From Escherichia coli (GTDB lineage: Bacteria; Pseudomonadota; Gammaproteobacteria; Enterobacterales; Enterobacteriaceae): a DNA stretch of 64,000 bases. The position numbers were made by a program, and so were the translations under genes. Each line of letters opens with the position of its first letter. Position 1 is the first letter of the stretch. The DNA is taken from assembly GCF_013315695.1 (NCBI RefSeq), contig NZ_CP054353.1. One strand, given 5' to 3'. Positions 24,488 through 25,905 of this stretch are shown here, piece by piece. Below the pieces are notes generated by a model. That model ran no database searches. It saw only the letters and a list, made by a program, of their open reading frames with translations, and had not been told where the DNA came from.

Positions 24488-24799
24488 TTATTCGGGGAAT
24501 AACGCCCTGATATTTCCGGCCATCTGATTGGTTATCTGTGCGGTTGGTACTGGCTGTGACACGGGGCGTTCTGTCCTGGTTTGTGTCACGGATAACGCCT
24601 CATCGTCAGCCCATGCAGCCAGTCGGTGAGCCTCTGCTGGATTCATTTTCAGAAGTGCCAGCCCGGCCAGAAAAGCCACGCGTTGGCCGCTTTTGCGGGC
24701 TTCTGGTGTAAGGCTGTCCAGCCAGGCGCATGCTTCGCTTTCGTTCTTGACGGCCGCAGGCTTCAGATAGAAACTTATCCGTCTGGTTGGTGTCGTCAT
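24488..24799 (-). CDS. parR: ParR-like centromere-binding protein
   Basis: MTTPTRRISFYLKPAAVKNESEACAWLDSLTPEARKSGQRVAFLAGLALL resembles R1 ParR N-terminal RHH region; starts 5 bp after the parM stop. Confidence 0.65.
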   Translation of the reverse strand: MTTPTRRISFYLKPAAVKNESEACAWLDSLTPEARKSGQRVAFLAGLALLKMNPAEAHRLAAWADDEALSVTQTRTERPVSQPVPTAQITNQMAGNIRALFPE

Positions 24800-24803
24800 T
24801 GGT

Positions 24804-25763
24804 TTACTCCTTGTCCATTGCGTACAGCCCATTAACCAGAGCAAACTGTGGCACCCCGTCCGCGATGAAAGTCGCATTAACTCCGCAGGCTTCGCGGATA
24901 GCGGGTGCCACAATCTCCGCCCCTCCACCGACAACCATCACCCGCCCATAACCCGAAAAACCCGCCAGCGCGCGGATCACGCGTTGTTTCAGTGTTTCTT
25001 CCTTTTCACGAATAACCGCCATCAGGCTGTCGTAATGCGCGTCATTGTGGATGTGCTGGCGCAGCCAGGCTTCATCATGGCGATGTTCGATAATGGTATT
25101 GGCGATATGGTGGCTGGTACGCATACCGTTAGTGGCCATCACCGACAGTACGGCATCGGCCATCAGAGAAACGCCTACGTGTGGATCGCAAAACACCTGG
25201 CTGATACCTGCCAGTTGTCCCTGAACCTTTGCCACATCCAGCGTGGTTCCGCCCAAATCCACAATCAGCAGTGATTCAAACGGACTCATGTCAGCCAGTG
25301 CCTTAAAGCCAGCCGGAATGGATTCAGGCATAACCCGTACGTTACGGATAGTGAATGCTTCGCCGTTCTGGTACTCCACCGGGCGCATAACGTTCGCTTT
25401 TTTGCGGTTGATGTTGGCCATGTCCGGCTGTGCGTTTGTGTCGAAATACTCGCTCAGTGGCAGGGTGACAACCACATCCACCTCCTGTGGCGTGATGCCT
25501 GATTTGACCAGCGCGTGATGAATGGCAATGACATTCACATCGCTGTACTGGTATTGCGTGTCGGTCGTCTGGACAAAGCGATCGCTGACCGGATCAAAAC
25601 CATAGCGCACGCCATCAAGCATGTAGTTCGCGGGCTGCGTGCCACCGAACGGCGCAGACCATTCCGACTTGAAGCTGTTCGGGCTGATGGCGTTGCGGCG
25701 TTCGCCGTTCTCAGTCCATGCCAGCTTGATGTTGGTGGAGCCGTCGTCGATACAAATTTTCAT
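24804..25763 (-). CDS. parM: ParM/StbA-like actin-type segregation ATPase
   Basis: MKICIDDGSTNIKLAWTENG...ISPNSFKSEW...YQYSDVNVIAIHHALVKSGI...VDVVVTLPLSE closely parallels plasmid R1 ParM. Confidence 0.85.
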   Translation of the reverse strand: MKICIDDGSTNIKLAWTENGERRNAISPNSFKSEWSAPFGGTQPANYMLDGVRYGFDPVSDRFVQTTDTQYQYSDVNVIAIHHALVKSGITPQEVDVVVTLPLSEYFDTNAQPDMANINRKKANVMRPVEYQNGEAFTIRNVRVMPESIPAGFKALADMSPFESLLIVDLGGTTLDVAKVQGQLAGISQVFCDPHVGVSLMADAVLSVMATNGMRTSHHIANTIIEHRHDEAWLRQHIHNDAHYDSLMAVIREKEETLKQRVIRALAGFSGYGRVMVVGGGAEIVAPAIREACGVNATFIADGVPQFALVNGLYAMDKE

Positions 25764-25905
25764 GTCGCTTTTCCTTATGTTGATTAATTAATCGTTTACA
25801 GGATTTTTAAATCCCGTTTTTGCCTGTTTTGTGCGCACTTCATATATCGCGGCACGTTTTTTGCTCATTTACGGGATTTGTGAATCCCGTTTCTGTCTGT
25901 TTTTT
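25764..25905. promoter_or_regulatory. parC-like iteron region upstream of parM (overlaps the 3' end of gene A)
   Basis: Two ~36-bp direct repeats (25798..25830 and 25868..25900), each with an inverted repeat GGATTT..AAATCC and phased T-tracts about every 10-11 bp. Confidence 0.4.

Follow-up and report, generated by a model that had tools for sequence, protein, structure and literature searches.

The best-understood actin-type partition system is the parMRC cassette (the parA or stb locus) of plasmids R1 and R100 (NR1), in which the centromere, the ATPase gene parM and the adaptor gene parR follow one another in that order. Its centromere, parC, consists of two sets of five direct 11-bp iterons, and in R1 it contains an autoregulated promoter. 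Cassettes of this general kind have also been described on elements that are normally integrated. Carraro et al. (2015, PMC4489591) reported that srpMRC of the SXT/R391 integrative and conjugative elements (ICEs) is expressed solely alongside the functions for excision and that it stabilises the ICE once excised, and Donovan et al. (2015, PMC4446434) reported that AlpAC, an early induced gene pair of the Corynebacterium glutamicum prophage CGP3, is needed for efficient replication of the circular phage DNA. Among P2-like phages, about a quarter carry a putative partition system according to Rousset et al. (2022, PMC9122126), who named it as one of the systems of the gpA-gpQ hotspot without analysing it, and the paper on Citrobacter phage PhiSM lists the gene as a "fitness" factor. 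Here, we examine such a parM-parR module in a P2-family prophage of Escherichia coli, within a stretch of 64,000 nucleotides of contig NZ_CP054353.1 that we call the window. That the module exists is already known, as RefSeq annotates it and a paper of 2022 mentions it, and the speculation that its carriers are phage-plasmids is also in print (PMC9122126), but we found no functional study of the module in the literature searched. Our analysis describes it as a conserved block at the A-proximal edge of the hotspot, together with candidate centromere boxes.

Judged by its sequence, the pair is a bona fide segregation cassette of the R1 family of type II (ParMRC) systems, with a candidate centromere whose layout is not that of R1, and it has most likely passed by vertical inheritance through P88-like (Xuanwuvirus) and related temperate phages of the P2 family, as one of their core modules. 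We estimate at roughly 55% the probability that it mainly serves the transient circular form of the phage genome, by segregating or positioning it, rather than a permanent plasmid prophage. The likeness to R1 and R100 extends to the order of centromere, parM and parR, to a match over the full length of ParM, and to the PF10784 family of ParR; unlike the plasmid loci, the module belongs to an integrating phage and directly follows a rolling-circle initiator gene. It shares with srpMRC the arrangement of an actin-type partition cassette on a normally integrated element, and srpMRC also supplies the functional model that we propose for the prophage. SrpM, in contrast, is distant from R1 ParM and SrpR has no recognisable ParR domain, whereas the prophage proteins are close members of the R1 family; moreover, srpMRC resides on an ICE and its function has been shown, while the prophage module is known from sequence only. 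With the AlpAC/alpS system of CGP3 the module has in common an integrated prophage host and an actin-like ATPase accompanied by a co-transcribed adaptor, which in AlpAC binds upstream sites, but that system differs in its actinobacterial host, its phage type, its gene order and its unrelated adaptor. Finally, the StbA-type partition system of phage D6 uses a ParM of the same family (48% identity), although D6 is a 91-kb plasmid prophage and the P88-like phages are integrating phages of 34-37 kb. The features on which the argument depends are the following.

25840..28686, minus strand: gene A, P2-type replication endonuclease (rolling-circle initiator), from the RefSeq annotation of the closest genome and Pfam Phage_GPA on homologues
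25865..25906: distal 42-nt repeat, candidate parC box 1, with its palindrome at 25871-25890, inside the last codons of gene A
25792..25833: proximal 42-nt repeat, candidate parC box 2, with its palindrome at 25798-25817, ending 28 nt upstream of the parM ATG
24804..25763, minus strand: parM, actin-like segregation ATPase of 319 amino acids, from Pfam, PDB and PHROG matches
24488..24799, minus strand: parR, predicted centromere-binding adaptor of 103 amino acids, from Pfam PF10784 and PHROG 2515
24257..24276, minus strand: terminator-like hairpin and T-run 3′ of parR, from a consensus scan only

The element is compact, comprising two genes and about 115 bp. The A stop codon lies at 25840, the parM ATG follows 76 nt further downstream on the same strand, and the parR ATG comes 4 nt past the parM stop codon. 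An initial annotation of this DNA had placed a ParM/ParR pair resembling that of plasmid R1 directly downstream of A and had proposed profile searches as a check. Both parts of this description are borne out: the genes come after A in the same orientation, preceded by a parC-like leader with repeats, and the searches, when run, matched both proteins to their family profiles, with Pfam and the sequence of the R1 structure agreeing on the resemblance. ParM matches the Pfam StbA_N domain over residues 1-157 (2.5e-82) and the ParM C-terminal domain over residues 159-316 (1.6e-68), the sequence of the R1 ParM crystal structure 1mwk over residues 2-316 (1.3e-92), and PHROG 691, "partition protein" (1e-90). 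NCBIfam gave only sub-threshold ParM matches, and the identity of the protein is settled by Pfam and PDB. The module therefore has the full-length ATPase with the actin/Hsp70 fold of the ParM/StbA family that a type II ParMRC system calls for. ParM is about 52% identical to plasmid ParMs, and its alignment to R1 ParM contains the nucleotide-binding and hydrolysis motifs of these systems: of the phosphate-binding and catalytic motifs, IDDGSTNIKL, MPESIPAG and DLGGTTLD are shared unchanged with R1 ParM, and GGGAE is also conserved. The ratio of nonsynonymous to synonymous substitution rates (dN/dS) for parM ranges from 0.02 to 0.11 in comparisons with nine relatives (the median for 45 pairs is 0.076), and the open reading frame (ORF) is intact in all 10 copies compared; phage record 503458, which is full of frameshifts, was left out of this analysis. 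By this measure (dN/dS about 0.08), purifying selection on parM is strong.

ParR matches Pfam Plasmid_stab_B (PF10784; 1.3e-23) and PHROG 2515, "partition protein" (8.7e-57), and a PDB sequence search with it gave no match. The protein is laid out as an N-terminal segment of ribbon-helix-helix (RHH) type, a variable linker and a C-terminal helix. Aligned with R100 StbB/ParR and other ParRs from plasmids and phages, the protein keeps the N-terminal strand RRISFYLKP and the helices that follow it, as well as a C-terminal N-x3-L motif, which reads NIRALFPE in the prophage ParR and NAMKLIN in R100 and whose residues N96 and L100 are invariant across the six phage and plasmid ParRs aligned. In R1, the C-terminus of ParR binds ParM (PDB 4a62), and the N-x3-L region of the prophage protein is a candidate for the corresponding ParM-binding motif. 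At 103 amino acids, against 116 for the R100 protein (as translated), the prophage ParR is the shorter of the two and is without the middle helix region. An AlphaFold model with a predicted local distance difference test (pLDDT) score of 62 gives an extended N-terminus, two helices, a disordered segment at residues 63-79 and a helix at residues 86-100, which fits the ParR layout; ParR is in this sense the small adaptor of a type II ParMRC system, with an RHH fold that is weakly modelled at this score. Its evolution differs from that of ParM. In codon-aware alignments, the dN/dS of parR is 0.2-0.45 and the linker is mosaic. There are at least four ParR allelic forms, which differ mostly in the linker, are 55% identical between types, and have in common the N-terminal strand and the C-terminal NIxxLFPE motif. 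Between types, the synonymous divergence (dS) is about 1 for parR versus 0.07 for parM, and a parR value so far above that of parM indicates recombination inside parR. A breakpoint lies within the gene: prophages of the EC958 and O157 types share homology with the window no further than about parR codon 19, the 3′ part of parR concerned being 24488-24745.

The region upstream of parM had been described as holding two repeats of about 36 bp with internal dyads, one of them overlapping the end of A. This layout was confirmed, although the repeats are longer, at 42 nt each. They are 83% identical, with a start-to-start spacing of 73 nt, and each holds a 20-bp palindrome, ACGGGATT-N4-AATCCCGT, with 16 nt of non-palindromic flank also forming part of the repeated sequence. 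The repeats exceed chance expectation. Within the 152 nt upstream of parM, significant self-similarity is seen at a single offset, that of 73 nt (z=5.4). The palindrome pattern occurs at two places in the 64-kb window, which are these two boxes, against 0.27 expected, and two occurrences were reached in 3 of 100 shuffles. Across 10 related prophages, the outer arms ACGGGA and TCCCGT are invariant or nearly so and the centre is variable; a common variant of box 1 alters positions 7 and 12 without restoring the pairing. The further description of the repeats as iteron-like needs correction, in that they are not iterons of R1 type: there is no 11-bp periodicity here, while R100 parC gives z=4.7 at 11 bp. 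No periodicity of 10-12 nt was found upstream of parM, and neither an R1-style iteron array nor an autoregulated promoter was recognised there; the 11-bp array, it should be said, defines only the R1 subtype and not type II systems in general. The phased T-tracts that had been proposed are A-tracts on the coding strand, 8-13 nt apart, and their phasing is not statistically significant. Compared with the two sets of five 11-bp iterons of R1 and R100, the candidate centromere of the prophage thus consists of two 20-bp palindromes 73 bp apart, without a promoter between them that a consensus scan could recognise.

Repeat elements are also found upstream of parM in other genera. A P2-like prophage of Plesiomonas is built in the same way as the window: two repeats lie 72 bp apart, with the pattern CGGG-N10-CCCG, and the first box falls in the last A codons. 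Serratia and Enterobacter share another element, an inverted pair of arms of about 20 nt with a diverged spacer. In Enterobacter, where A and parM are separated by two inserted genes, the inverted-repeat element is still directly upstream of parM; because the element stays with parM and not with A, this arrangement argues for a site linked to parM and against an origin used by gpA. More generally, the type of repeat changes together with the ParM/ParR clade. An Rfam scan gave no family match at the repeat region. By their position, repetition and conservation, the two boxes are a candidate centromere (parC). As a separate observation on the same stretch, the last 85 codons of the 948-amino-acid A protein (25843-26098) have dN/dS values of about 0.3-2.8, mostly at least 1, and synonymous changes are scarce (1-2 per 54 sites). 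On these small counts, the C-terminal tail of A seems to be only weakly constrained as protein, with possible constraint at the DNA level where the distal box overlaps it.

With regard to transcription, a consensus scan of both strands of 24200-26200 detected nothing resembling a sigma-70 promoter, and on the minus strand it placed no terminator in the A-parM interval. In agreement with this, the best candidate from a manual search for weak promoters near the boxes matched at 8 of 12 positions and lay implausibly near the ribosome-binding site. The early genes from Cox to parR all lie on one strand. Because no promoter or terminator separates A from parM, parMR is probably the tail of the repressor-controlled early (replication) operon, read through from A, and the hairpin at 24257..24276 is likely to be the end of the early transcript.

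The host element is a P88-like prophage (genus Xuanwuvirus, family Peduoviridae) located beside btuC, with an integrase, C and Cox. The genome closest to the window is that of E. coli A24, with 100% identity over parMR and 99.1% over A. Among 5426 complete E. coli genomes, 1307 carry the module, and 1453 of its 1455 copies are chromosomal, the other two being on plasmids. P88-type A at a coverage of at least 80% is present in 1325 genomes, versus 1277 with parMR, which corresponds to a co-occurrence of about 95%. A search for the same module in other P2-like prophages, which the initial annotation had recommended, found it in four other genera: in Plesiomonas, Hafnia, Serratia and Enterobacter, the order is again A, parM, parR, variable genes and then the portal, with ParM identities to the window of 63%, 62%, 59% and 54%, respectively. 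These divergent relatives came from a protein search and contig look-ups, as a contig scan with ParM returned three near-identical loci only. In a phage collection of 50,697 records, this ParM occurs only in members of Xuanwuvirus, apart from the P1-like phage-plasmid D6 (48%). Among the best 5000 plasmid records, six have a ParM of at least 95% identity (the three shown carry P88-like prophage DNA), and none of the others reaches 60%, the best listed being about 52%. In a neighbour-joining tree, the phage ParMs grouped apart from the plasmid ParMs. Two chromosomal ParMs with about 50% identity, in Dickeya and Mangrovibacter, were considered as phage relatives and rejected: the Dickeya ParM/ParR pair (6001-7373 in the Dickeya stretch) lies in an ICE-like region with TraG, TraU and an integrase, and the Mangrovibacter pair (6001-7361 in the Mangrovibacter stretch) in an integrated plasmid with Rep3 and ParAB. 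Both are additional examples of R1-family ParMR pairs on integrated elements.

These data also bear on where the variable part of the prophage begins. The module had been assigned to the cargo hotspot, but it behaves as a conserved core block, with about 95% co-occurrence with P88-type A and a gene order that is kept across genera. Among the E. coli relatives, homology stops at the parR stop codon or within parR (about codon 19) and not before parM; thus, the variable hotspot starts there and not at A. The patchy presence and the similarity to defence systems that characterise variable anti-phage cargo are not found in the module, and PADLOC models gave no match for ParM or ParR. The slot between parR and the portal/cos side, for its part, is variable. 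In the window, it holds a gene for a 268-amino-acid DUF3800 protein (23450-24256, plus strand; Pfam 5.9e-10), which matches the PADLOC candidate defence model PDC-M04A (2.6e-35), with no PDC-M04 partner gene seen; in relatives, the same slot holds HicAB, a KAP NTPase or DUF4760. The DUF3800 gene is likely to be anti-phage cargo.

Taken together, these observations lead us to propose the following role. ParM and ParR would be made only after infection or derepression, through read-through from the C-repressed early operon, at a stage at which the phage genome would be an extrachromosomal circle replicating from gpA/ori. Dimers of ParR bound at both boxes would make up a small partition complex, and filaments of ATP-ParM captured at ParR/parC would push sister circles apart, so that copies would spread through the cell and into both daughters before integration, re-integration or packaging. 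The outcome would be less loss of the element, through abortive lysogeny or curing after spontaneous excision, and/or more efficient replication and packaging. Of what is known for partition by integrating elements such as those with srpMRC and AlpAC, the architecture is present in the prophage, and there is a single indication of co-expression with the early functions, namely that neither a promoter nor a terminator was found to separate A from parM.

Several points weigh against this proposal. No experimental work on the module came up in the literature searched. A minimum of two copies is required for a ParM spindle, and a single unreplicated circle would therefore not be rescued. The candidate centromere is assigned from position, repetition and conservation only, and with two boxes and no 11-bp periodicity, it is far smaller than the ten iterons of R1 parC. 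In addition, the structural model of ParR is of low confidence (pLDDT 62), the neighbour-joining tree of ParMs carries no support values, and the consensus scan is compatible with a weak or activator-dependent promoter, so that the genes may be expressed in the lysogen.

Expression in the lysogen is what a repurposed module would need. Produced from the integrated prophage, ParR could act with parC, and with or without ParM, in exclusion of, or incompatibility with, superinfecting P88-like phages or plasmids with related centromeres, or else ParR could serve mainly as a transcriptional regulator at the A-parM junction. We regard this as improbable. Neither protein matches a PADLOC model, the module is conserved rather than variable, and no promoter for lysogenic expression was detected in the consensus scan, even though the genes lie within the A-Q interval, a documented defence hotspot of P2-like phages (PMC9122126), and have as their neighbour a candidate defence gene (DUF3800, PDC-M04A 2.6e-35). 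Similarly, the four or more ParR allelic forms with their fast-evolving linker would suit such a repurposing, but no diversification of specificity is visible, since all E. coli alleles agree in the boxes and in the N-terminal ParR strand that contacts DNA, and ParM is under purifying selection over its whole length, including ATPase motifs that a purely DNA-binding or regulatory role would not need. It is about equally improbable that the repeats are something other than a centromere, either part of the origin or termination signals of gpA or hairpins in the RNA through which the A-parM transcript is processed or stabilised. The P2 replication origin lies within the A coding region, the distal box is inside gene A, and the palindromes would give mRNA hairpins with 8-bp stems, one of which was called terminator-like on the opposite strand. 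Against this, the Enterobacter element adjoins parM and not A, the repeat type follows the ParM/ParR clade, and a hairpin explains neither the repeated 16-nt non-palindromic flank nor a box 1 variant at positions 7 and 12 without compensatory pairing, with no Rfam family matching the region. As for the idea that the cassette is a functionless remnant of an old recombination between plasmid and phage, which could explain why an element almost always found integrated has genes of plasmid type, the selection and synteny data effectively refute it: parM has a dN/dS of about 0.08, the ORFs are intact in all copies compared, the module keeps its position across genera at 54-63% identity, and it accompanies P88-type A in about 95% of cases.

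A different kind of alternative is that P88-like phages are facultative phage-plasmids, persisting for generations as low-copy circular episomes, in a plasmid prophage or carrier state, that ParMRC would partition. The initial annotation had arrived at a phage-plasmid lifestyle from the premise that an integrating phage needs no partition system, a premise contradicted by srpMRC of SXT/R391 (PMC4489591) and AlpAC of CGP3 (PMC4446434), and Rousset et al. (2022, PMC9122126) stated the same idea. We consider it unlikely, though less so than the alternatives above. In its favour, a complete P88-like genome has been deposited as a circular, non-mobilisable "plasmid", pZ1323PEC0009-2 (NZ_CP148288.1; 34,461 bp, from E. 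coli Z1323PEC0009), the only record in PLSDB that equals a whole phage genome. In this single record, however, the sheath, tape-measure and portal ORFs, and probably that of gpD, are frameshifted; the record could stem from faulty assembly of excised phage DNA, or its frameshifts could reflect real decay. P88-like phages also carry a killer gene of the hok/gef family near the ogr end, beside attP in the circular form (4929-5069 in the phage P88 record, 1291-1431 in NZ_CP148288.1 and 16275-16415 in the A24 prophage stretch), and thus hold homologues of both classical stability loci of R1. The P1-like phage-plasmid D6, as mentioned, uses a ParM of the same family (48% identity). Against this, nearly all copies of the module in complete E. 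coli genomes are chromosomal (1453 of 1455), and the copy in the window is itself integrated next to btuC, in contrast to the extrachromosomal residence of phage-plasmids such as P1, N15 and D6. An intact attP junction was found in none of 442 E. coli genomes whose integrase is of the same type as that of the circular record, in a test that is blind to records starting at the junction, NZ_CP148288.1 itself included. The integrase, C and Cox are kept in every prophage inspected, and the annotation contains no replication initiator of plasmid type, only the rolling-circle gpA, so that the plasmid-type replication and missing integrase of phage-plasmids are not seen either. That P88-like phages would make up a hidden class of facultative phage-plasmids, existing as circles partitioned by ParMRC and policed by hok/gef, with integration being one of two lysogenic states, is a more doubtful proposition still. 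Segregation or positioning of the transient circle thus remains the role that we favour.

A few further observations concern other parts of the prophage. In A24, an hxsABCD (His-Xaa-Ser radical-SAM) cluster is flanked by a truncated gpD-like gene on one side and ogr on the other (12174-15571 in the A24 prophage stretch). The window is unlike A24 to the left of the tail genes, with coordinates shifted by about 1 kb and a 432-amino-acid ORF at 268-1566, and the hxsABCD annotation was not transferred to it. The P2 cos sequence was not found in the window. Just after the portal gene, at 22896-22950 on the minus strand, there is a sub-threshold Rfam match to "gyrA RNA" (22 bits against a gathering threshold of 45, E=0.035), which is probably due to chance.

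The cassette is found in the chromosome of about one in four sequenced E. coli, including the O157:H7 and ST131 lineages, where it has no obvious role. Its close relationship to the best-understood ParMRC system and the availability of the inducible phages P88 and PhiSM make its function testable. If a plasmid-like carrier state proved to be true, many "prophages" would have a second lifestyle. If, instead, the module acts on the transient circle, the principle known from SXT/R391 and CGP3, that integrating elements segregate their excised form, would extend to very abundant enterobacterial phages, and the efficiency of lysogenisation and the stability of the prophage would be affected.

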